Positions 3,589-37,688 of a stretch of 38,273 nucleotides of DNA are shown here, one piece after another. This DNA comes from a virus. The first letter of the stretch is position 1. Each line of letters begins with the position of its first letter. The notes under the pieces were generated by a model. That model was given only the letters and a program-made list of their open reading frames with translations, did no database searches and had not been told where the DNA came from. Location: positions 1 through 38,273 of IMG/VR virus record IMGVR_UViG_3300045988_043012. One strand, 5' to 3'. Made by a program: the position numbers and the translations under genes.

Positions 3589-3624
3589 GTGTTCGTGCTC
3601 CTTTCGTGTTTTTATTCCAACCAG

Positions 3625-3969
3625 CTATTTCAGCCGGGGGAATTTGGTGGAACCGCCCGTTTTCCCCTTCTGAGGGGTCTGGGAGCCGTTCTGTTCGCCG
3701 CCAAGGATCTTGTTGGCATCGGAACGCAAGGCCTCCGGTGTGGTCCCCAGAAGGCCGCACAGGGCCTTTGCCTGCATGGTCTTCCCGTAGCGGGCATACA
3801 GGCTGTTTGCGATATTGGGGTCAATGCCCAGCCGCCTGGCTGTGCTCTGTACACCCTCCAGCGTATCAGCCGTCCCGCTGATCGCCTGCTCCGCCTTCTG
3901 CACCGCGTTTTGCAGGTCGGCGCTGGGGAACATCTTCGACGCGGCCGCTATGATCTGTTTGAGATCCAT
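3625..3969 (-). CDS. Hypothetical protein (114 aa)
   Basis: ATG preceded by AAGGAG..GAAGGAGA. Helical, Lys/Gly-rich tail. Confidence 0.65.
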   Translation of the reverse strand: MDLKQIIAAASKMFPSADLQNAVQKAEQAISGTADTLEGVQSTARRLGIDPNIANSLYARYGKTMQAKALCGLLGTTPEALRSDANKILGGEQNGSQTPQKGKTGGSTKFPRLK

Positions 3970-4273
3970 TCTCCTTCAGCTCCTTTACCTGGGCCGACAG
4001 GCCCTTGATGATCTCGGCCATATCGCTCATGGCCGACTGCATCTCACCCATCAGCTCCTCCTGCGTCTTGGGCGGGGTGATGATGCCTAACTCCACCAGC
4101 TTGTCGTAATACTGCTGGGTGGTGCCCTCCAGCTCCGTGTAGGCCGCCGAGGTCTTGCCGATAAGCTGCTGACGGTTGCCGAAATAGTCCACCTGCCAGA
4201 TGTCCGCGCCGTCGATGGCGCACATCAGACAGCTGGAGCCCGTGTATCCTGCGATTGCAAATTGCTGATCCAT
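3866..4273 (-). CDS. Hypothetical protein (135 aa), first gene of the operon
   Basis: ATG at 4273 after GGAGGTG. The last ~35 codons overlap the next gene and look like out-of-frame GC-rich filler, so the true C-terminus is uncertain. Confidence 0.6.
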   Translation of the reverse strand: MDQQFAIAGYTGSSCLMCAIDGADIWQVDYFGNRQQLIGKTSAAYTELEGTTQQYYDKLVELGIITPPKTQEELMGEMQSAMSDMAEIIKGLSAQVKELKENGSQTDHSGRVEDVPQRRPAKRGAEGGAGDQRDG

Positions 4274-4321
4274 AGCGCACCTCCTTTTCCTATCCCAATG
4301 ATACAAAAAATACGGACAGCC

Positions 4322-4362
4322 AAACTGCCCGGAAACTGCCTGTATTCTGCCCTTAAACTGCC
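4322..4362 (-). promoter_or_regulatory. Four 11-bp-phased WWWCTGCC repeats upstream of the minus-strand operon
   Basis: AAACTGCC at 4322, AAACTGCC at 4333, ATTCTGCC at 4344 and AAACTGCC at 4355, an exact 11-bp period. A minus-strand -10-like TATCAT (4298-4303) lies downstream with no good -35. Confidence 0.6.
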
Positions 4363-4384
4363 CAAAAAATATTTTGAGAAATTC

Positions 4385-4424
4385 GGTTTAACCTATTGAC
4401 AATAGGTTAAACCTATGGTATATT
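4385..4424 (+). promoter_or_regulatory. SigA-type promoter overlapped by a 29-bp perfect palindrome (operator)
   Basis: TTGACA at 4396-4401, 17-nt spacer, TATATT at 4419-4424. The palindrome GGTTTAACCTATTG-A-CAATAGGTTAAACC spans 4385-4413 and is centred on the -35. Confidence 0.75.
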
Positions 4425-4456
4425 ATAGGTACAGTAAAGGAAAGGGGTACGCGAAA

Positions 4457-4687
4457 ATGTGGAAGGAAGGCAGCATCAAGGTCAACGGCGAGAGTTTTCA
4501 CTACTGGATGAAGCAATACGATGAAGGTTCTAAATGGGGAATTAATGGAGGTCGCATTTCCAAACTGATGCTCAAGCGAAACGGCGAAATTGTTTGCAAC
4601 TATGACAGAGGTTGGGACATAGAACCCGCCGACGAAAACACCCGTATTGCCACGGAGCATCTGATCCGCAGCGACAAAGGAGAATAA
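4457..4687 (+). CDS. Hypothetical small protein (76 aa)
   Basis: ATG at 4457 lies downstream of the predicted transcription start. The track start at 4415 lies inside the promoter. Product begins MWKEGSIKVNGESFHYWMKQYDEGSKWGINGGRISKL. Confidence 0.65.
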   Translation: MWKEGSIKVNGESFHYWMKQYDEGSKWGINGGRISKLMLKRNGEIVCNYDRGWDIEPADENTRIATEHLIRSDKGE

Positions 4688-4689
4688 AA

Positions 4690-4935
4690 ATGAAAACGAT
4701 CTATATCAAAGAAATCGGATTCGACGAGTTCTATAAGGTTAGCTATTCCATCCGGAAATCAAACAAGGGCTACCGCATCGCCCACCCGGAGGAAGTCACC
4801 GAAATTTCACGAAGTGACTACTACAAGGCCCCCGCCTCCGCGCGGACGTCTTACCGGTGTTTCCAGCGTGACCGCGATGTTTCTGAAATCGGGACTGCCT
4901 ACTTTCTTGACCTGCTGGAAGCGCAGGAGGGCTAA
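4690..4935 (+). CDS. Hypothetical small protein (81 aa)
   Basis: ATG at 4690 lies 2 nt after the previous stop, with a GGAGA purine run upstream. Product begins MKTIYIKEIGFDEFYK. Confidence 0.6.
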   Translation: MKTIYIKEIGFDEFYKVSYSIRKSNKGYRIAHPEEVTEISRSDYYKAPASARTSYRCFQRDRDVSEIGTAYFLDLLEAQEG

Positions 4936-4938
4936 GCA

Positions 4939-5115
4939 ATGCCGGATAGCGAAGCGAAACGCCAGTGGATGGCACAAAACACCACCTTTATCGGGCTGAA
5001 GCTGAACAACAACACCGATACCGATATCCTCGCCGCGCTGGAAGGCAAAGCCCGCCAGACGGAGATCAAGCGGCTAATACGCTTGGGATTGGAAAAGGAA
5101 GGACGAAGATCATGA
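4939..5115 (+). CDS. Ribbon-helix-helix-like small protein (58 aa)
   Basis: Not in the track. AGGAGGG precedes the ATG at 4939. Product MPDSEAKRQWMAQNTTFIGLKLNNNTDTDILAALEGKARQTEIKRLIRLGL has a strand-helix-helix pattern. ATGA overlap with the next gene. Confidence 0.55.
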   Translation: MPDSEAKRQWMAQNTTFIGLKLNNNTDTDILAALEGKARQTEIKRLIRLGLEKEGRRS

Positions 5116-5423
5116 GCAGAGTGAAAATGGTTTTGAAGTGTGAGCACTGTGGAAAAGAGTTTGAGCACATCCACACTTGCCGCAATTCCACCGAGGCGGG
5201 ATCTTATGAGGTCTGGGCGCGGGAAAACATCACCACCTGCCCGGACTGCTACGCGGCGCAGAAGCGTGCGCACCAGCTGGACGCCGTTTCCGGTTACATT
5301 TCCAACTTCAGCGAACAGCACCCCCTCCCTAAGATCACCGGCGTTTCTGAAAAGCAGATCGCCTACGCTTCCAGCCTGCGGGAAAAATTCATCCGCGACA
5401 ATTTGATGAAGCTGATAGCTTGA
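5112..5423 (+). CDS. Zinc-ribbon protein (103 aa), possibly the 5' part of a frameshifted gene
   Basis: CEHCG...CPDC motifs. ATGA-coupled start. The reading frame appears to continue in the +1 frame after 5423. Confidence 0.6.
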   Translation: MSRVKMVLKCEHCGKEFEHIHTCRNSTEAGSYEVWARENITTCPDCYAAQKRAHQLDAVSGYISNFSEQHPLPKITGVSEKQIAYASSLREKFIRDNLMKLIA

Positions 5424-5493
5424 TGTAAACCGTTTCTTTGAAATTGCGGACAGGATTAAGCCGGAAAACTGCGATGAATCTGGGAGGGAACTC

Positions 5494-5664
5494 ATGCGCA
5501 AGGCCGCAGCCGATGCCGGGAAGCCCTTTGAAATCTGGTTTACGGCTTACCGTGCGGATCGTCTTTGGCGTTATTTCAGCCTGATCTATGCCGCCGACGT
5601 GGCGAAAATCGAAACCATTTTCACGGAATCCAGCGCATCCAAGATTATCGACGCATTGAAATAA
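5494..5664 (+). CDS. Hypothetical 56-aa ORF, possibly the 3' part of a frameshifted gene
   Basis: GGGAGGG precedes the ATG at 5494. The same frame is open from 5431 (LDVNRFFEIADRIKPEN...). Confidence 0.45.
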   Translation: MRKAAADAGKPFEIWFTAYRADRLWRYFSLIYAADVAKIETIFTESSASKIIDALK

Positions 5665-5683
5665 AAAACAGGAGGAAAAGCAC

Positions 5684-5989
5684 ATGATCGCACATCTTTA
5701 CAAGATCCCTTCCACCTTCCGGAATGTTCCCGACGCGGTAAAGATCCGGGAGAAACCGTACGAGAATTTCCCCGGCACATGGCTTCACGCTAACTTACAT
5801 CTGCCTGATGGCCTCCGCGTTGCGGATTCCGAGTATGGCGAGGGCGCTTTCATCACGGAAGCTGGCGAGGTGATCTTTGAGGCGTACGCGGACCCCGAAC
5901 AGATCAGCGGAAACGATCTGCAAGGCCGCGTTACCGTGCGGGACTCCGCCGGGAAATACCTAATTGATACCGTTGTCATCTGGAATTAA
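5684..5989 (+). CDS. Hypothetical protein (101 aa)
   Basis: AGGAGG RBS. ORF ends just before a strong terminator. Confidence 0.7.
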   Translation: MIAHLYKIPSTFRNVPDAVKIREKPYENFPGTWLHANLHLPDGLRVADSEYGEGAFITEAGEVIFEAYADPEQISGNDLQGRVTVRDSAGKYLIDTVVIWN

Positions 5990-6006
5990 GCCTGCAAACC
6001 TAAACG

Positions 6007-6038
6007 AAAAGCCGTGTCCGATTCGGACACGGCTTTTT
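6007..6038 (+). terminator. Rho-independent terminator built on palindrome copy 1
   Basis: AAAAGCCGTGTCCGATTCGGACACGGCTTTTT, a perfect stem followed by a T-run. Confidence 0.85.
6016..6028. repeat. GTCCGAWTCGGAC palindrome copy 1
   Basis: GTGTCCGATTCGGACAC, inside the terminator. Confidence 0.95.
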
Positions 6039-6069
6039 GAAAATATTTTGCTTTTTTTGCTTTTCTCTC

Positions 6070-6098
6070 TTGACACACCACCAAATTGGTGGTATTAT
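6070..6098 (+). promoter_or_regulatory. SigA-type promoter with a 17-bp palindrome in the spacer
   Basis: TTGACA at 6070-6075, 17-nt spacer, TGgTATTAT with -10 at 6093-6098. The spacer contains ACCACCAA-A-TTGGTGGT. Confidence 0.7.
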
Positions 6099-6136
6099 AA
6101 TAACAACAAGAGGGCACAGCCCAGGAGGAAAATAAA

Positions 6137-6409
6137 ATGAAAATTACTGATGGAAAGAAAACCGTAGAGATCAAGATCCAGCGCTGGAATGGTTCCGGAT
6201 ACGATCCGGACTGGAGCCGCGATTATTTTACCGCCGGTTCCCTGCCCTATGATGAGGAAACTGATACTTATACCGTTGAGGATGTTGATTATTGCATCGA
6301 AATGGCCAACAACAGCACCTGCGAAGATGGCGCTTGCATCAAATATAACGAGGACGGAGTCCTTGTCCCTGACGAAGATATGGTCGTCTTTGTTGATGAA
6401 CTGAATTAA
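6137..6409 (+). CDS. Highly acidic small protein (90 aa)
   Basis: AGGAGG RBS. By my count about 22 D/E versus 7 K/R. Contains DEETDTYTVEDVDYCIEM and VPDEDMVVFVDELN. Confidence 0.75.
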   Translation: MKITDGKKTVEIKIQRWNGSGYDPDWSRDYFTAGSLPYDEETDTYTVEDVDYCIEMANNSTCEDGACIKYNEDGVLVPDEDMVVFVDELN

Positions 6410-6422
6410 GGAGGGATATACC

Positions 6423-6761
6423 ATGACGGACAAACAGTTTAGCACCCTTTTGGGTGGCGCACTGGCGGACCAAGATCGGGATATGTACGTATCAGACTGG
6501 GCACTATCTGACATCTGGGGAAATCCGGAAGGCGCTGACATCCCGGATGATCGGATCCAGGCCTTGGGAGCGTTGTGGGATGTGGCTCATATTACGATCC
6601 GCGAGATCAGGGCAGCCACTGGCTTGTCTCAGGTTGCTTTTGCCCAGCGCTTCTGTATCCCGCGCCGAACGGTGGAGAATTGGGAATCCGGGGCAAGCAC
6701 TTGTCCGGACTATCTGCGGATTTTGTTGGCGCAAGCCGTAGGGCTGTATACGCGGAGCTAA
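6423..6761 (+). CDS. HTH (XRE/antitoxin-like) DNA-binding protein
   Basis: AAGGAGGG RBS. C-terminal HTH IREIRAATGLSQVAFAQRFCIPRRTVENWESG. Confidence 0.75.
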   Translation: MTDKQFSTLLGGALADQDRDMYVSDWALSDIWGNPEGADIPDDRIQALGALWDVAHITIREIRAATGLSQVAFAQRFCIPRRTVENWESGASTCPDYLRILLAQAVGLYTRS

Positions 6762-6774
6762 ATATATAAAAAGA

Positions 6775-6802
6775 GCCGTGTCCGAATCGGACACGGCTTT
6801 TT
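6775..6802. terminator. Bidirectional terminator built on palindrome copy 2
   Basis: GCCGTGTCCGAATCGGACACGGC stem, flanked by an A-rich run on the left and TTTTTG on the right. Sits between convergent genes. Confidence 0.85.
6780..6792. repeat. GTCCGAWTCGGAC palindrome copy 2
   Basis: GTGTCCGAATCGGACAC, inside the terminator. Confidence 0.95.
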
Positions 6803-6804
6803 GT

Positions 6805-7041
6805 TTACCCCTGCATATCATCCGCGATCTTGGCGTAGGCACGCCGCCGGATCTTGGCAAGGCCGTCTACGCTGACGTGGAGCAGCGCCGCCGCCTGTAG
6901 GCAGCTCTGGCCGTGGACGTCCACCGCCAGCACCGCCGCCTCCTCGTCAGGCGGCAAGCCTACCAGCCGGACGGCCTGCGCCGCCCGGGCCGGGGCCATC
7001 GATGACAACAGCGCCCGGATCTCTCGGTTTGTTTTTTCCAT
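6805..7041 (-). CDS. Sigma-70 region-4-like small HTH protein
   Basis: 78 aa. LQAAALLHVSVDGLAKIRRRAYAKI resembles a region 4.2 HTH. Weak RBS. A much stronger SD plus ATG at 7093 is out of frame (see findings). Confidence 0.5.
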   Translation of the reverse strand: MEKTNREIRALLSSMAPARAAQAVRLVGLPPDEEAAVLAVDVHGQSCLQAAALLHVSVDGLAKIRRRAYAKIADDMQG

Positions 7042-7114
7042 GGGTTTTCCAGACTTGCAGAGCGCGGATTAACCGCGTGGATGTTGTTGCCATCTTCTGG
7101 CCCTCCTTTCGGTT

Positions 7115-7510
7115 TTATCCTTTCCAGTCAGCCTTGGCCTCTCTCACGTCGATATGACAAAAGCTGTCATAAACCCCCACGCCGCCCCAGTCTGGCATGA
7201 TCGACCGGGCGAAGGCTGCCACCGTTGCCGGTGTCTGACCCTTGATGGAAATATCCGCCGCCATGCCATAGCAATGCTGGCTGTGGGCCGCGCCGTTTAC
7301 CTTCGCGTTGTGCTGCGGCGTCCGGTAGGCGCTGTGGATGACCACCGGAGCGCAAAAATGGGAACGAATGGTTTCCAGCACCATCACCAGCCGGGGAGCC
7401 ACCAAAACAGCGTCACTGCCGTCTCCACACGCAAACTCCCGGACCCGGAAATGGGCGGAGAGCTGCTTGCCCCCGGAGGCGGCTTTGCTGTAAGCGTGGA
7501 TCTCAACCAT
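7115..7510 (-). CDS. Peptidase M15-family (D-Ala-D-Ala carboxypeptidase-like) endolysin
   Basis: 131 aa. Zn-ligand pattern SAYRTPQHN...AAHSQHCYGMAADI...HIDV. Confidence 0.8.
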   Translation of the reverse strand: MVEIHAYSKAASGGKQLSAHFRVREFACGDGSDAVLVAPRLVMVLETIRSHFCAPVVIHSAYRTPQHNAKVNGAAHSQHCYGMAADISIKGQTPATVAAFARSIMPDWGGVGVYDSFCHIDVREAKADWKG

Positions 7511-23340: not shown

Positions 23341-23446
23341 TCCGGCCCTCCTTTCTCCGCTGGTTTCTGATAAACCGCTGCATGTCCCGTTTCAGGTACG
23401 GGCTGCTGGTCCGCGCGATGATCCGCTCAGCCTCCTGTACCGTCAT
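23249..23446 (-). CDS. Possible small protein overlapping the terS start
   Basis: ATGA-coupled to the upstream stop. The first ~35 aa look protein-like (MTVQEAERIIARTSSPYLKRDMQRFIRNQRRKEG). The remainder overlaps terS out of frame. Confidence 0.35.
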   Translation of the reverse strand: MTVQEAERIIARTSSPYLKRDMQRFIRNQRRKEGRNGREKTTDRCGDRQRAKAPEPRRGSGAAGR

Positions 23447-24846
23447 ACGGCACCGCCGTGCTTCCCAAGGCTTTTTATAAGCGCCTTTTCGCGGTCAGAT
23501 AATGGCCAAATGATTTTCCCATCCGCTGACATGCGGGAGTTTTGCTGAGATTCAGAAATGGCAGCAAAAGGTGCGCTCATGACTTCCAATGCGGCTTCTT
23601 CTGCTTTGGATTTCTTAGCAGCTGCTGCCTCTGACAACAAAAAGCCGGCGCCAAAAATGGCCTTGCCTTTTTCCTTTTGGGCATCCAGAGCTCGTGTAAA
23701 TTGAAGATCCTCATCGGAAAAACACAATGACTGGCCATGCTTCGCAAGGTCAAAATCCTGAACGCATAAAACGTTGCGCGGATAAATGTACCCAGGGAGT
23801 TCAATGCGGGACTCGCCCCGGTTGCGCTTGTCAGCTTCATCTATCAAAGAAAACAACTCCCCGGAGATCTCCACACGCCACCCCCCCAAATTTGTGACAA
23901 AGGACGTATTGACGCGGGCACCGTTTTCGTACGTAACTGAGGCCGAAACGGGCACGTAGTTTGATTTTCCCGCATTTGTGGAAAACAGCGTCAGCGCTGG
24001 AGCAAACAAGAAGTAGCGGATGCCATGCTCATCAAAGAATCTGCAAATCTGCGAAAGAATAGAAAATGGCGGATTGTCGATCACCACGCAGCCTTCCGGG
24101 TAGTCCTCGTGCTCATAATCACCGCCCGGGTAAAACGGGCGGAGGATCTGAGCGTCACCCAGTTTATAATGCGATATAGCCCAATCCTTGACGGTGTCAT
24201 AAACGATCTCAGGAGTAAAACAATCATCCGTTGTTTTCTTGGCCTTAAACTTATCGGTAAACGCCTCGTATTCATCGGAGCTTTCGCCCTCCTCGTCGCC
24301 CCAGAAGTGCTTACCTTCCGGCTCCGCAGCTTTTCCGGGAGCAGCCCGGGTGTAGGCGTTTGCCTCGATGGCTTTCAGGCTCTCCGCGTCAAAACCGGCG
24401 ATCCCGGTGTCAAAGTTCAAAGCCTCCAGACCCTCCAGCTCGATTTTCAGCAGTTCCGTATCCCATGCTGCCGTCTCGCTCAGCCGGTTGTCTGCCAGAA
24501 TGTACGCCTTGCGCTGGGCCTCCGTCAGGTTGGTCACCAGCACGCAGGGCACCTCGCTCATGCCCTCCGCCCTGGCGGCCTCCACCCGGCCGTGGCCTGC
24601 GATGATGTTGTTGTCAAAATCGATAAGCACCGGCGTCACGAAGCCGAACTCCCGCAGGCTGGCCCGGATCTGGTTGATCTGCTTAACGCCGTGCTTCTTG
24701 GCGTTGTTTGCGTAGGGGATGAGATCGTCAATGGGAACCATGGTGAGCTGCTCCGCTGCGATCCGCACCGTCTGATTGTCTCTCGTCGGCGCCGGATTGA
24801 CGCCGCCCTTTCCGGCAGTCCCGCCGGGTGTCTTTTTCTTTGCCAT
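23443..24846 (-). CDS. ParB-N-domain fused to an N6-adenine DNA methyltransferase-like module
   Basis: ATG at 24846 after AGGAGGA. N-terminal ParB/Srx-like region (IIAGHGRVEAA, LTEAQRKAYILADN). DNPPF motif IV further on. The 3' half is AT-richer. Confidence 0.75.
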   Translation of the reverse strand: MAKKKTPGGTAGKGGVNPAPTRDNQTVRIAAEQLTMVPIDDLIPYANNAKKHGVKQINQIRASLREFGFVTPVLIDFDNNIIAGHGRVEAARAEGMSEVPCVLVTNLTEAQRKAYILADNRLSETAAWDTELLKIELEGLEALNFDTGIAGFDAESLKAIEANAYTRAAPGKAAEPEGKHFWGDEEGESSDEYEAFTDKFKAKKTTDDCFTPEIVYDTVKDWAISHYKLGDAQILRPFYPGGDYEHEDYPEGCVVIDNPPFSILSQICRFFDEHGIRYFLFAPALTLFSTNAGKSNYVPVSASVTYENGARVNTSFVTNLGGWRVEISGELFSLIDEADKRNRGESRIELPGYIYPRNVLCVQDFDLAKHGQSLCFSDEDLQFTRALDAQKEKGKAIFGAGFLLSEAAAAKKSKAEEAALEVMSAPFAAISESQQNSRMSADGKIIWPLSDREKALIKSLGKHGGAV

Positions 24847-24876
24847 GCTGATCCTCCTGTGATACCCGGCGCACAC

Positions 24877-31171: not shown

Positions 31172-31284
31172 AAGGCCACGCCCTTTGCCGTCACCGTCAG
31201 CAGGATCACGGCAGCCACGGCGGCTGCCAAAGCCAGCACCGGGAGGACCCGGCTCCGGCGCTTCCCGCGCCCTGTGTATCTCAT
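31168..31284 (-). CDS. Small membrane protein (38 aa)
   Basis: Not in the track. AAGGAG RBS. ATGA overlaps at both ends. Product MRYTGRGKRRSRVLPVLALAAAVAAVILLTVTAKGVAL. Confidence 0.5.
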   Translation of the reverse strand: MRYTGRGKRRSRVLPVLALAAAVAAVILLTVTAKGVAL

Positions 31285-32774
31285 GTCTCCACTCCTTTCC
31301 CTGCCGCTGGTACAGGCGGCAGCCGCATCCACCAGGCCACGGGGGCCTGTGCCTCAATGCCGCCCGGCATCATCCAGTGTTGGCCATCCCAGTCAAAAAA
31401 CCGTTTCAGCAGCGTTCCGTCACCCAGGTCCACATAGGCCGCAAACTCGCCCGGCTCCGCCGGGTTGGTGCTGCCGGGCATCCATCCGGCGATCATCAGC
31501 TGGCCCTCCGGCAGCGTCGGCGGTGTCAACTCATCCGTCAGGCCCACGATGTAGTCGGCGGAACAGTGTAGCGCCCGGGCGGACTTGGCAATGTTACTAA
31601 GGTTATCCGGGGCAAGATCGTTTGTGTAGATACGATATTCATCAAACTCCCCAGCGGCCAGCTCGCGGAGATGGCCCGCAGTATAAGAACCCCCGTATCT
31701 GGTCTGAACAGCGAAGGCATTGTCCGGTATTCCGGCGGCGTCCGCCGCTCTGGCCAATCGGGCGGCGCTGGCCTGAATTTCCTTCTCAAGTTTCCGCATT
31801 TGCTTGTCCTCAGCCGCCTTTTTTGCGACTTTCTTCTCAGCCAATGCCTCCTTGCGCTTGGCCTTTGCTTTGCTGCAAGCCTCATCGCAGGGATAATATG
31901 TTGCTGTTCCCTGAGAGCATTCCAGACAGCAGGTCTGGCCGCCGCAGACATCGCAGCCGCAGCACTCCGCGTCATGCCGAAGGAAAGCGTCTCCCCGCTT
32001 GCACTCCTTGCCGTCCGGGCAGGTCAGGCGCGGCTCCCAGCGGTAGCCCCTGTCCTTGTAAAGCCGCAGCAGCTTCTCCAGCGTGGAGCCCGTGGGCAGC
32101 TGAGGAAATACTCCGGAAATCCGCATCTGCATATCCGCCGGGAACTGGGCCAGCGCATAGGCCGCCTGCTCCGGCATCTTCCCGCCGTCCCACGCGGGGC
32201 GAAGATTAGACAGCAGATGCTCCCGGATCACCTTGATCCGGGCCAGCTTGGAGCCGTGAGTGTTGCAGGCGGCAGCCACCACGTCCCGCATCCGGCCCTC
32301 CGGGAACTCAAAACCGTCCTCCTTCAGCTGATACAGCAGCGCCTCCACACGCTCCGCCTGCTCGCCGATCTCTGCGCTGGTGAGCTTGCGGGTGGAGCTG
32401 TTGGCGAAGATCAACCGAAGCTCCTGAAGCGCCGGGGAGGCGTTGTCCGTATCCCGGATGCAGGGGACCCGGCGGAACTGGTCCAGTCCCTTTTTCACAA
32501 GCTGAGCCAAAGCGGCCCTGCGCCGGTGGCCGCTGACGATGGTGAACCGTCCGCCCTCACCGGCCCGCACCCGGATAGGCTGCTGCAAGCCGCACATCTG
32601 GATGTTGTCCGCCAACTCGTCAATGTCCGTCAGATGGTAAAAATTCCGCTCGTCGCCGTCCAGCAGGCCGATGTCGATGTACTCGATCTGCTCCGGGCCG
32701 GTGGTGTTCAGCTCTGCCACACCGGCCAGCTGCTCACCCAGCACGTCCATCACGTTAAATTTCCGTTTTTCCAT
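31281..32774 (-). CDS. parB: ParB/Spo0J-family protein with a long Cys-rich and DUF551-like C-terminal extension
   Basis: ParB N-domain (IVSGHRRRAALAQL). GGGAGGTG RBS. Start lies 3 nt after the parA stop. Confidence 0.8.
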   Translation of the reverse strand: MEKRKFNVMDVLGEQLAGVAELNTTGPEQIEYIDIGLLDGDERNFYHLTDIDELADNIQMCGLQQPIRVRAGEGGRFTIVSGHRRRAALAQLVKKGLDQFRRVPCIRDTDNASPALQELRLIFANSSTRKLTSAEIGEQAERVEALLYQLKEDGFEFPEGRMRDVVAAACNTHGSKLARIKVIREHLLSNLRPAWDGGKMPEQAAYALAQFPADMQMRISGVFPQLPTGSTLEKLLRLYKDRGYRWEPRLTCPDGKECKRGDAFLRHDAECCGCDVCGGQTCCLECSQGTATYYPCDEACSKAKAKRKEALAEKKVAKKAAEDKQMRKLEKEIQASAARLARAADAAGIPDNAFAVQTRYGGSYTAGHLRELAAGEFDEYRIYTNDLAPDNLSNIAKSARALHCSADYIVGLTDELTPPTLPEGQLMIAGWMPGSTNPAEPGEFAAYVDLGDGTLLKRFFDWDGQHWMMPGGIEAQAPVAWWMRLPPVPAAGKGVET

Positions 32775-32776
32775 CC

Positions 32777-33550
32777 TCAGCACCTCCCGGAGATCTCTTT
32801 CACCAGCGCGGCGTAGTCCTTGCTGGCCGCGCAGTAGGGACGGGCCACCGGCAGCGGCACCTTTTGGAAGGTGGCGCTGGGCACAGCCTTGGAGAACCGG
32901 ATCACCGTCTCAAACACCGGAAGCGCCCCGCCCCGGATGGCCGCGAGGGCCTCCTTCTCGTCGGCCATGTGGGTGAACTGCGTCACCAGCACGCCCAGCA
33001 CCGACAACCGGGGGTTGATGGCCCGCATGTTCTGGAGCTGCTCCGCCAGATTGGCCATGCCGCCGGTGGAGTAGTAGTCCAGCCGGATGGGGATAATCAC
33101 CTCGTCCGCAGCGGCCAGCGCCGCCGTACAGGCCGCCGACAGCGCCGGCGGGCAGTCAATCAGGATGAGATCGTAGGCGTTGTCTTGGTCCGCGTCCTCC
33201 TCGATGGCGTCCCGCAGATCCGCGATGGCCCGCTGCATCCGGCCTACGCCGCTCTGGGCCATGTGCCGGTCAGCCGCCAGCAGGTTAATGTCGGACGGGA
33301 TCAGGTCGATGCCGTCATAGACGGTGGGCGTCACGAACTCCGGATAGTATCCGGCGCCCTCGGTCAGGAGGGCCAGCGTGTCCGCGCCCTCCTCCGCGTC
33401 GATGCCAAAGGACATGCTCAGGTTGCCCTGACTGTCCCCGTCGATCAGCAGGATCCGTTTGCCCTGCTTCGCCAGCAGATACGCCAGCGTGGCGGTTGTG
33501 ACGGTCTTGCCGACGCCGCCCTTGAAATTCAATACCGCAATAGTTTTCAT
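32777..33550 (-). CDS. parA: ParA/Soj-type partition ATPase
   Basis: Deviant Walker A (NFKGGVGKT), IDGDSQGN, IIDCPP. Confidence 0.9.
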   Translation of the reverse strand: MKTIAVLNFKGGVGKTVTTATLAYLLAKQGKRILLIDGDSQGNLSMSFGIDAEEGADTLALLTEGAGYYPEFVTPTVYDGIDLIPSDINLLAADRHMAQSGVGRMQRAIADLRDAIEEDADQDNAYDLILIDCPPALSAACTAALAAADEVIIPIRLDYYSTGGMANLAEQLQNMRAINPRLSVLGVLVTQFTHMADEKEALAAIRGGALPVFETVIRFSKAVPSATFQKVPLPVARPYCAASKDYAALVKEISGRC

Positions 33551-36046: not shown

Positions 36047-36625
36047 TCACAGGGATGCGCCCCCTTCCCGGCAAAAATTAGGGCTTGCGTGCAGCGTGGA
36101 CCTTGTGCTATAATTGATACATCCAGTGGTTGATCCAATACCACACACTTTTCCCCCTGAACGCTCTGAGGTTGCCGCCTCGGGGCGTTCTTTTTTTGCG
36201 CCTGAGTAGATCACCTGATAGATGGCCGCCATGGTATCCCTCAGCTCCAGAACGATGTCATCAAACTCCGGCCGCTCAGCCTCGTCGATCACGCCGTCCT
36301 CCGCGATCCGGAGCAGGGCGTCCAGCCGGCCCGTCGCGTCTTGCAGACGGTTCCGAAGGGCGATGCTTGCCATGGGCAGCGGCCTTGGCGTCACCTCCGG
36401 CATCACGCCCAGCGTGTCCGTGGCCTGCGCGTGCTCCAATGCCAGCCATGGGCAGCTGTACGCCTCCACCATCTTGGCCACCGTCTCGTCCTTGGGCACC
36501 GTCTTTCCGCCCTCGTACTGTTTCAGGCTTTCCGGTGACAGCCCAAGCAGCTCCGCTGCCCGTTCTTGGCTCATTCCGGTACTCAGCCTTGCCCTTTGGT
36601 ACAGATTAGGGCATCTCTTGTCCAT
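36047..36625 (-). CDS. XRE-family HTH protein (early regulator)
   Basis: Strong GGAAAGGAGGAAAAG RBS. HTH in ARLSTGMSQERAAELLGLSPESLKQYEGG. The C-terminal ~40 aa are of doubtful quality. Confidence 0.7.
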   Translation of the reverse strand: MDKRCPNLYQRARLSTGMSQERAAELLGLSPESLKQYEGGKTVPKDETVAKMVEAYSCPWLALEHAQATDTLGVMPEVTPRPLPMASIALRNRLQDATGRLDALLRIAEDGVIDEAERPEFDDIVLELRDTMAAIYQVIYSGAKKERPEAATSERSGGKVCGIGSTTGCINYSTRSTLHASPNFCREGGASL

Positions 36626-37594: not shown

Positions 37595-37688
37595 TCTCCG
37601 CTTGATCTGCGGGGGACAGAGATGCAAACAGGTCCAATGCGTATGTAGTGTCCGAATCGGACACGGTGCGGGTGGTCTGGCTGCTCAT
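37554..37688 (-). CDS. Small convergent ORF (44 aa) overlapping the cI-like 3' end
   Basis: GGAGG lies 7 nt before the ATG at 37688. Product MSSQTTRTVSDSDTTYALDLFASLSPADQAEIMALAVSALASPQ contains palindrome copy 9. Confidence 0.45.
   Translation of the reverse strand: MSSQTTRTVSDSDTTYALDLFASLSPADQAEIMALAVSALASPQ
37650..37662. repeat. GTCCGAWTCGGAC palindrome copy 9
   Basis: GTGTCCGAATCGGACAC, about 55 nt downstream of the cI-like stop. Confidence 0.95.

Follow-up and report, generated by a model that had tools for sequence, protein, structure and literature searches.

A probable new family of Aca-like regulators with candidate anti-defense cargo in phages of human-gut Clostridia

The two-gene operon that we describe here lies in the viral record IMGVR_UViG_3300045988_043012 of IMG/VR, positions 1 to 38,273 of which (38,273 nucleotides [nt]) are referred to as the window, and it has the organization known from anti-CRISPR (Acr) genes and their anti-CRISPR-associated (Aca) regulators. 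Three architectural features of acr-aca operons are observed in it and its relatives, namely, the operon itself, a promoter that contains an inverted repeat, and diverse cargo. The first gene encodes a strongly acidic protein of 90 amino acids (aa) that belongs to a family we call F2, and the second encodes a helix-turn-helix (HTH) protein that is the predicted autorepressor. This HTH protein probably represents a new family of Aca-like regulators with candidate anti-defense cargo in phages of human-gut Clostridia. An earlier note on this DNA had proposed an acr-aca-like architecture, and the proposal gained support in that regulator and operator occur together, that the operator arms co-vary, as do a protein residue and a DNA base, and that the regulator is associated with unrelated, mostly acidic cargo. 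Whether positions 6005 to 6803 as a whole represent a self-contained accessory cassette (a moron) of the acr-aca-like kind, carried by a temperate gut-Clostridia phage or phage-plasmid, is in our judgment an even call on the sequence evidence.

The promoter of the operon matches the sigma-A/sigma-70 consensus at 11 of 12 positions and carries in addition the TG of an extended -10 element (...CTC TTGACA C ACCACCAAATTGGTGG TATTAT AATAAC...). Only two promoter-like sites of such quality occur between 3500 and 9500, each of which heads a plus-strand operon. The palindrome ACCACCAA-A-TTGGTGGT, with two 8-nt arms around a single central base, fills the spacer of the promoter, and its right arm contributes both the TG and the first T of the -10 element. 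The strong promoter with a palindrome in its spacer that had been claimed earlier (TTGACA-17-TATTAT with TG, palindrome at 6077-6093) was therefore described accurately, as were the other sequence elements listed with it, all of which were found in place. The palindrome occurs once in the window, where about 0.1 copies would be expected by chance even if up to three mismatches were allowed.

The association between this palindrome and the downstream HTH gene is consistent across related loci. Among 92 loci with an F2 gene, all 46 that have this HTH gene directly downstream carry a CCAC...GTGG palindrome in the promoter spacer. At one further locus (L009), the palindrome is present although the next gene is unrelated, and the HTH domain is found in the third gene of the operon. 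When loci were retrieved by the HTH protein instead (128 loci, representing 64 unique cassettes), the pattern TTGACA-N-ACCAC-N7-GTGGT-TANNNT was found 155 to 1778 nt upstream of the HTH gene. The arrangement TTGACA-N-palindrome (17 nt)-TANNNT is kept in 44 distinct promoter sequences, over which the complementarity of the arms is 96.6%, compared to 86.1 ± 1.1% in shuffled sets and 20 to 45% when one arm is slid along the other. The three inner positions of the arms vary jointly (CAA/TTG, GCA/TGC, CGA/TCG, CCA/TGG, and GGA/TCC), and cells in which both arms have changed number 25, compared to 7.8 ± 2.1 in shuffles, a value that was reached in 0 of 500 shuffles. We considered that the palindrome could form an RNA structure and rejected this, given that it lies upstream of the predicted transcription start; its symmetry points instead to a dimeric DNA-binding protein.

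Further evidence comes from the recognition helix of the regulator, which has the motif IP.R..E[D/N]W. Whether D or N is present tracks the base at half-site position 6 (66 of 66 unique cassettes), with D paired with G in all 38 cassettes of that type and N paired with C or T in the remaining 28 of 28. The exceptional locus L009 likewise fits, with G and D. In L176, which belongs by sequence to a D-type lineage, the protein and the DNA have changed jointly to N and ACCACC, suggesting that the association between residue and base does not reflect shared ancestry alone. This D/G versus N/C co-variation amounts to a specificity code, and the compact pair of repressor and operator that it describes could find use in synthetic circuits in Firmicutes.

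It could be argued that the palindrome is not a protein operator at all but a chance occurrence or a structural element of the promoter, with the HTH protein regulating something else. Because the right arm GTGGT shares bases with the extended -10 TG, promoter function may explain part of that arm's conservation, and there is only the single copy in the window. Nevertheless, the left arm mirrors the right across the 44 distinct promoters and three inner positions show compensatory changes, the palindrome was present in every examined locus with this HTH gene, and one of its bases follows a residue of the recognition helix throughout; we find this alternative hardly credible. By co-occurrence, symmetry, and protein-DNA co-variation, we take the palindrome to be the operator of the downstream HTH protein, which very probably represses the operon. 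A bound dimer would have to compete with sigma, given that the extended -10 TG lies in the right arm, as does the first T of the -10 element. In several multi-gene cassettes (L136-L139, L151, L157, L161, L163, and L187), we also observed an internal promoter-like site, TTGACATTTCC(C/T)GCGCAGCGTGGTA..., about 165 to 188 nt upstream of the HTH gene, which carries the right half-site GCGTGGT only and may give basal expression of the regulator.

The presence of an HTH protein as the second gene, as the earlier note had it, is borne out by a match of residues 59-98 to HTH_3 (29 bits against a cutoff of 23). The regulator family comprises 253 clusters. In the predicted structure (mean predicted local distance difference test score [pLDDT], 89), a helical N-terminal domain (approximately residues 1-55), for which there was no structural match, is followed by a C-terminal Xre-type HTH domain (approximately residues 57-105) with the motif IPxRTxExWExGxxxP. 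The best Foldseek matches of the HTH domain were to HigA2 (8a0x, 5jaa, and 5j9i; probability of about 1.0, E of 0.4, root mean square deviation of about 1.8 to 2.8 Å over 53 to 55 columns), followed by the HTH domains of other antitoxins, restriction-modification (R-M) controller (C) proteins, and phage repressors. In sequence searches, the regulator matched MqsA, HigA2, and Atu1735, and no match reached the family thresholds (TIGR03830 scored 22.7 bits, with the cutoff at 61.8).

These similarities raise the alternative of a higBA-type toxin-antitoxin module, with the small upstream protein acting as its toxin and the HTH protein doubling as antitoxin and autorepressor. In both sequence and fold, the HTH domain comes nearest to the antitoxins HigA2, MqsA, and HipB, HigA2 also has an N-terminal extension before its HTH domain, the order with the small gene first matches higBA, and promoters of such modules carry palindromic operators as well. 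As in HigA2/MqsA systems, then, two genes share an operon with a palindromic operator, and the second encodes a protein with a C-terminal Xre-type HTH domain and an N-terminal extension; in contrast to those systems, the cassette has no cognate toxin, and the genes upstream of the regulator are variable, unrelated to each other, and acidic, while the N-terminal domain is conserved regardless. The regulator, N-terminal domain included, is 55 to 70% identical across cassettes whose upstream genes differ, and these consist of 1 to 4 genes from about 10 unrelated families (64 unique cassettes) between the operator-bearing promoter and the HTH gene. The F2 protein itself, with a net charge of -15, resembles no toxin family or toxin fold, and F2 genes also occur without a partner or with unrelated ribbon-helix-helix (RHH) and HTH regulators. 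A toxin-antitoxin pair would hardly be expected to show a single regulator with changing cargo together with a cargo family that turns up under different regulators, and we rejected this reading on the grounds of cargo variability and stand-alone F2 genes, leaving it with a very low probability. Homology to toxin-antitoxin pairs, which the earlier note had named as the finding that would speak against its proposal, was not what emerged: the cargo varies and F2 stands alone, although the HTH domain is still nearest to HigA2.

Five of the cargo families are strongly acidic, namely, F2 (net charge of -14 to -17), F3 (70 to 157 aa, -9 to -25), F7 (111 to 116 aa, -17), F11 (71 aa, -11), and F12 (97 aa, -15). 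The others include F0 (mildly acidic), F1 (neutral), F4 (178 to 185 aa), F5 (basic, with multiple zinc ribbons), F8, and F14. Families can be combined within a single operon, as in L105, where the order is F3, F7, and HTH. Searches of F0, F1, F3, F4, F5, F7, F8, F11, and F12 against Pfam and PHROGs gave no informative match, and neither did those of F0, F3, F4, and F7 against PDB sequences, the exceptions being a Kelch-blade-like motif in F3 and the zinc ribbons of F5. F5 proteins (110 to 206 aa) contain several CxxC zinc ribbons, and their genes often accompany these cassettes on either side of the HTH gene, examples being L019 (4628-5248), L141, L147, L156, and L159; the cassette of the window lacks it.

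The acidity of the 90-aa F2 protein of the window had been put at about 22 D/E versus 7 K/R residues, and counts of 22 and 7 were indeed found; D and E make up 24% of this cytoplasmic protein. A crude background distribution of net charge in small open reading frames (ORFs) was dropped as a statistic because it contained the cargo families themselves and reflected naive ORF calling. A word-indexed search recovered 219 F2 clusters at 90% identity, none of which is informatively named, and one member is present on at least 1000 contigs; an exhaustive profile search extended the family to 365 clusters at 50% identity (E ≤ 0.001). A core of about 62 conserved residues always lies at the N terminus of these proteins, which are 65 to 280 aa long and have variable tails, which are very acidic in the 13 long sequences that we read (150 to 280 aa). 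All of the F2 contexts examined were phage, prophage, or metagenome contigs. In two proteins (from the set P0354, P0407, and P0391), the N-terminal domain of about 62 aa is fused to DUF3849, for which a literature search returned no papers. In P0391, the F2 domain is apparently fused to an MqsA/HigA2-like HTH domain, but this is a single 2-kb contig with no recognizable promoter and a possible assembly artifact, and we regard it as a lead only.

The earlier note had likened the acidic protein to anti-restriction proteins of the Ocr/ArdA type and had proposed a structure prediction. An AlphaFold2 model built from a 21-sequence alignment was confident (pLDDT of 95, predicted template modeling score of 0.81) and showed a mixed beta/alpha fold, indicating a genuine folded protein. 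However, Foldseek found nothing in the PDB at an E value below 1 (best E, 2.9) and only uncharacterized gut-phage proteins in BFVD. There was no match to the F2 protein in Pfam, PADLOC, or INPHARED phage records, and matches in PHROGs, NCBIfam, and PDB sequences were insignificant (E of 0.013 to 0.09). The likeness to Ocr and ArdA thus holds for the strong negative charge, as well as for a small, soluble, promoter-proximal product on a mobile element, but not for the fold or for any meaningful sequence match. The absence of a PDB match to the model indicates that F2 is unrelated to Ocr, ArdA, UGI, or any solved Acr, AcrIIA4 among them.

F2 genes are not tied to this regulator. In L055-L063, F2 stands alone behind other strong promoters; in L001, it belongs to a moron cluster and is two genes away from an ArdC-N-like gene; and in L087/88, it is followed by a 62-aa Xre-type HTH protein. 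In L064-L083 (approximately positions 3610-4000), it is divergent from an RHH gene of the HicB/TacA1 type, of which there are three variants, each with its own intergenic palindrome (CATGCTAGCATG, ACCGTTAACGGT, and ACCGTATACGGT); the first two are present in two copies each, while for ACCGTATACGGT the upstream site is only a degenerate relative. These F2/RHH loci parallel the RHH-type Aca14 (PMC13551039).

Established features of acr-aca loci are strong consensus promoters, an inverted repeat in the core promoter, HTH or RHH Aca repressors, and RNA motifs in the 5' untranslated region (UTR) (PMC6765145, PMC9410906, and PMC13551039), and Aca-based anti-CRISPR discovery rests on a conserved regulator with variable small cargo (PMC9410906 and PMC13551039). 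The cassette shares with them a near-consensus promoter with the inverted repeat inside its core, one or more small cargo genes followed by a DNA-binding regulator that is predicted to be dimeric, a location in variable regions of phages, one regulator family downstream of unrelated cargo, and a structured 5' UTR element. It differs in that its regulator has an N-terminal domain of its own and a HigA2-like HTH domain, unlike any Aca protein with a solved structure (the set that our comparison covers), in that no cargo is a known Acr, in that there is a single inverted repeat where acr-aca loci frequently have two (IR1 and IR2), and in that the 5' UTR hairpin does not resemble the operator half-site.

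We hypothesize that the near-consensus sigma-A promoter would drive a transcriptional burst upon entry of the DNA into a cell without the regulator, and that the acidic first product would then bind and block a host protein that handles nucleic acids, most likely a defense nuclease or effector (CRISPR-Cas, restriction, or similar). The HTH protein would dimerize on ACCAC-N7-GTGGT in the spacer and extended -10 region, occlude RNA polymerase, and turn the operon down, while the hairpin that abuts the ribosome binding site may add RNA-level control or mRNA stabilization. We think it reasonably likely that the acidic protein acts as an inhibitor; that its target is a defense system is credible but falls a little short of probable. 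More tentative still is the fuller proposal that a previously undescribed Aca-type family marks a reservoir in which the 90-aa protein founds a family with a new fold, F2 and at least four further acidic families are new inhibitors of defense and possibly DNA mimics, and the hairpin is an RNA operator as for Aca2 and Aca1.

Several observations weigh against an anti-defense role under an Aca-like regulator. Strong autorepressed promoters are also typical of toxin-antitoxin modules, R-M controller proteins, and many phage accessory genes. Some of the cargo, such as F1 and F5, is not acidic, and no cargo resembles a known Acr or other anti-defense protein in Pfam, PHROGs, PADLOC, NCBIfam, PDB sequences, or PDB folds. 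The nearest structural relatives of the regulator are antitoxins, HigA2 first, and no solved Aca chain was among its PDB sequence matches (E ≤ 1) or its top 50 fold matches. The regulator also resembles the R-M controller proteins, which, as small dimers of the Xre-type HTH class, time expression after cell entry by binding to palindromic boxes of their own promoters, and C.AhdI and C.Esp1396I were among the weaker fold matches of its HTH domain; in contrast to R-M loci, the operon has no methyltransferase or endonuclease, and its cargo consists of small acidic proteins.

The same regulatory logic would apply if the acidic protein inhibited a target of host takeover or housekeeping, such as RNA polymerase, a nucleoid protein, uracil-DNA glycosylase, or RecBCD/AddAB, in the manner of T7 Gp2, SPO1 Gp44, phi29 p56/UGI, or T7 gp5.9. 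A small, very acidic, promoter-proximal product behind a strong promoter would suit this role, as would its lack of homology to known anti-defense proteins and the genes for DNA metabolism and modification that lie near the cassettes in related phages (dUTPase/DCD, SSB, DNA methylases, and Mom-like genes). Two points make us consider it unlikely. The F2 model has no PDB fold match to UGI, p56, Gp2, or similar proteins, and the cassette is dispensable and modular, its cargo differing between close relatives and being swapped between similar phages, a pattern that one meets in arms-race genes more often than in core takeover functions.

A further alternative is a moron for lysogenic conversion or superinfection exclusion, from which a resident prophage or phage-plasmid would express the acidic protein and thereby protect the lysogen against other phages or benefit the host, with the HTH protein setting the level. 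Like the morons of lambdoid phages and HK97, the cassette is an autonomous promoter-gene-terminator unit between late-gene blocks on the opposite strand, present in some relatives and absent from others, and it differs from them in its dedicated, predicted autorepressor with an operator and in the recurrence of the regulator-promoter frame with exchangeable cargo. Its own promoter and terminators, its orientation opposite to the flanking late and lysis genes, its presence or absence among sister phages, and the probably temperate nature of the phage would all be in keeping with exclusion, and Aca-controlled operons do have basal expression in lysogens (PMC6765145). Known exclusion proteins, however, are mostly membrane proteins or enzymes, while the F2 protein is soluble, 90 aa long, and acidic; PADLOC gave no matches; and the repeated association of one repressor with unrelated, strongly acidic small proteins fits inhibitor cargo better. 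We consequently see exclusion as distinctly improbable and retain the preference for an inhibitor of host defense under an Aca-like repressor.

To our knowledge, almost no anti-defense genes are known from the dominant phages of the human gut, because culturing their hosts is difficult and no sequence signature unites Acr proteins. A conserved regulator that flagged variable cargo was the starting point of most Acr discoveries. The operon layout itself is established biology, and the regulator-operator pair, whose protein-DNA specificity signal is unusually clear, is a clean handle on abundant uncharacterized proteins of gut phages: a search for TTGACA-N-ACCAC-N7-GTGGT-TANNNT together with the 112-aa HTH protein already flags about 10 uncharacterized cargo families, five of them strongly acidic. 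Because it is easily searched, the pair provides a testable list of candidate inhibitors of Cas9, type I CRISPR, R-M, and other systems of Clostridia, with possible use as tool proteins. If the fuller proposal above is correct, the phages of human-gut Clostridia hold a large untouched reservoir of anti-defense genes.

The 5' UTR of the operon contains the hairpin GGGC-ACA-GCCC, which on its own is weak (-6.1 kcal/mol, z of -1.5). Among the unique UTRs of related cassettes, however, 51 of 77 have a GC-rich stem of 4 to 6 bp that ends a few bases from the Shine-Dalgarno sequence, compared to 2.0 ± 1.5 in shuffled sequences, and the stem takes the forms GGGC/GCCC, the flipped GCCC/GGGC, GCCGC/GCGGC, CGCC/GGCG, and GCCGG/CCGGC. 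Structured 5' UTR motifs are bound by Aca2 and Aca1 (PMC13551039). Given that the hairpin is unlike the operator half-site, a role in stabilizing the mRNA is equally possible, and it could be either an mRNA stabilizer or an RNA operator. An Rfam scan of 4200-7200 gave no family match.

The features of the cassette are collected in Table 1. The extent given earlier was 6070-6761, but the unit runs from about 6005 to 6803 once both terminators are counted. Both ORFs lie between one promoter and one terminator, and the second begins 13 nt past the stop codon of the first, with a GGAGG of its own. The claim that the terminator is built on a dispersed palindrome proved correct: the hairpin GCCGTGTCCG-AWT-CGGACACGGC, which has A and T runs on either side, is found at both 6011-6033 and 6775-6797, so the cassette is bracketed by two copies of one bidirectional terminator. 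The left copy closes the preceding operon, and the right copy, which reads GCCGTGTCCG-AAT-CGGACACGGC-TTTTTG (6775-6803), separates the cassette from convergent genes on the minus strand. A third, degenerate copy of the palindrome, GTAGTGTCCGAATCGGACACGGT, is found at 37645-37667 and is probably not a terminator, given that it has no T tract. The A/T-rich stretch before the -35 element has counterparts elsewhere, since tracts resembling AAAATATTTT precede the promoters of L005, L009, and L036.

Table 1. Positions and properties of the elements that make up the cassette
Feature	Position	Strand	Description
Bidirectional hairpin terminator, left boundary	6005..6039		Stem GCCGTGTCCG / CGGACACGGC, A and T runs on either side; ends the preceding operon
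A/T-rich stretch 5' of the -35 element	6040..6069	+	GAAAATATTTTGCTTTTTTTGC...; possibly UP-element-like
Near-consensus sigma-A/sigma-70 promoter	6070..6098	+	-35 TTGACA 6070-6075, 17-nt spacer, TG 6090-6091, -10 TATTAT 6093-6098
Predicted operator palindrome	6077..6093		ACCACCAA-A-TTGGTGGT; predicted site for a dimer of the downstream HTH protein
Small 5' UTR hairpin	6112..6122	+	GGGC-ACA-GCCC; directly 5' of the Shine-Dalgarno sequence AGGAGG 6123-6128
Cargo gene, family F2	6137..6409	+	90 aa; 22 D/E, 7 K/R; GGAGG Shine-Dalgarno sequence
Regulator gene	6423..6761	+	112 aa; C-terminal Xre-type HTH; predicted autorepressor
Bidirectional hairpin terminator, right boundary	6770..6803		Stem 6775-6784 / 6788-6797, then TTTTTG

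Comparison with sister phages indicates how the region has been assembled. In four of them (L016, L019, L033, and L095), positions 4298-4376 of the window are joined directly to 6038 onwards, showing that 4377-6037 is an extra, inserted module in the window. This module contains a second strong promoter, six small ORFs, and one copy of the terminator. The sequence AAAATATTTTG is found on both of its flanks (at about 4366-4377 and 6041-6052), which suggests that modules are exchanged by recombination at a short repeat. In the commonest type of sister phage, an F5 zinc-ribbon gene follows the HTH gene, a position at which the window has none.

The second near-consensus promoter consists of TTGACA at 4396-4401, a 17-nt spacer, TG, and TATATT at 4419-4424, and its -35 element is straddled by a perfect 12-bp inverted repeat, GGTTTAACCTAT (4385-4396) and ATAGGTTAAACC (4402-4413). 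The ORFs of this neighboring operon encode a DUF7678 protein, an 81-aa protein, a 58-aa protein, a zinc-ribbon protein, a 56-aa protein, and a 101-aa protein, none with a known function; the zinc-ribbon ORF (5112-5423) matches the same PHROG as F5 (phrog_1271). AcrIIA22 is an Acr of clostridial gut prophages from hypervariable islands (PMC8545432), and searches with three of the small ORFs of the neighboring operon gave no PDB match to an AcrIIA22 homolog. Just upstream of the accessory island, at 4322-4365, are three tandem-like copies of AAACTGCC(C/T), which are kept in sister phages, where they lie directly upstream of the acidic cassette.

The contig that makes up the window is complete and of phage size. 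Its minus strand carries the genes for TerL, a capsid protein, an M15 endolysin, and a NAGPA-like protein together with holin-like ORFs, and DnaB and SSB are encoded as well. The plus-strand island (4396-6803) sits between the lysis genes and a further minus-strand block. Relatives were found in human-gut viromes and in metagenome-assembled genomes of Clostridiales, Oscillospiraceae, Ruminococcus, and Christensenellales. The window also encodes ParA (32777-33550), two long proteins with ParB-N domains (31281-32783 and 23443-24876), and a CI-like HTH protein (36047-36625), on the basis of which the phage is probably temperate. The ORFs that we scanned included no integrase, and with its ParA and ParB-N proteins this element may be a phage-plasmid. 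A 78-aa ORF on the minus strand (6805-7041), convergent with the cassette and located where the lysis block ends, weakly matches sigma-70 region 4 (22 bits, under the cutoff) and is kept in sister phages.

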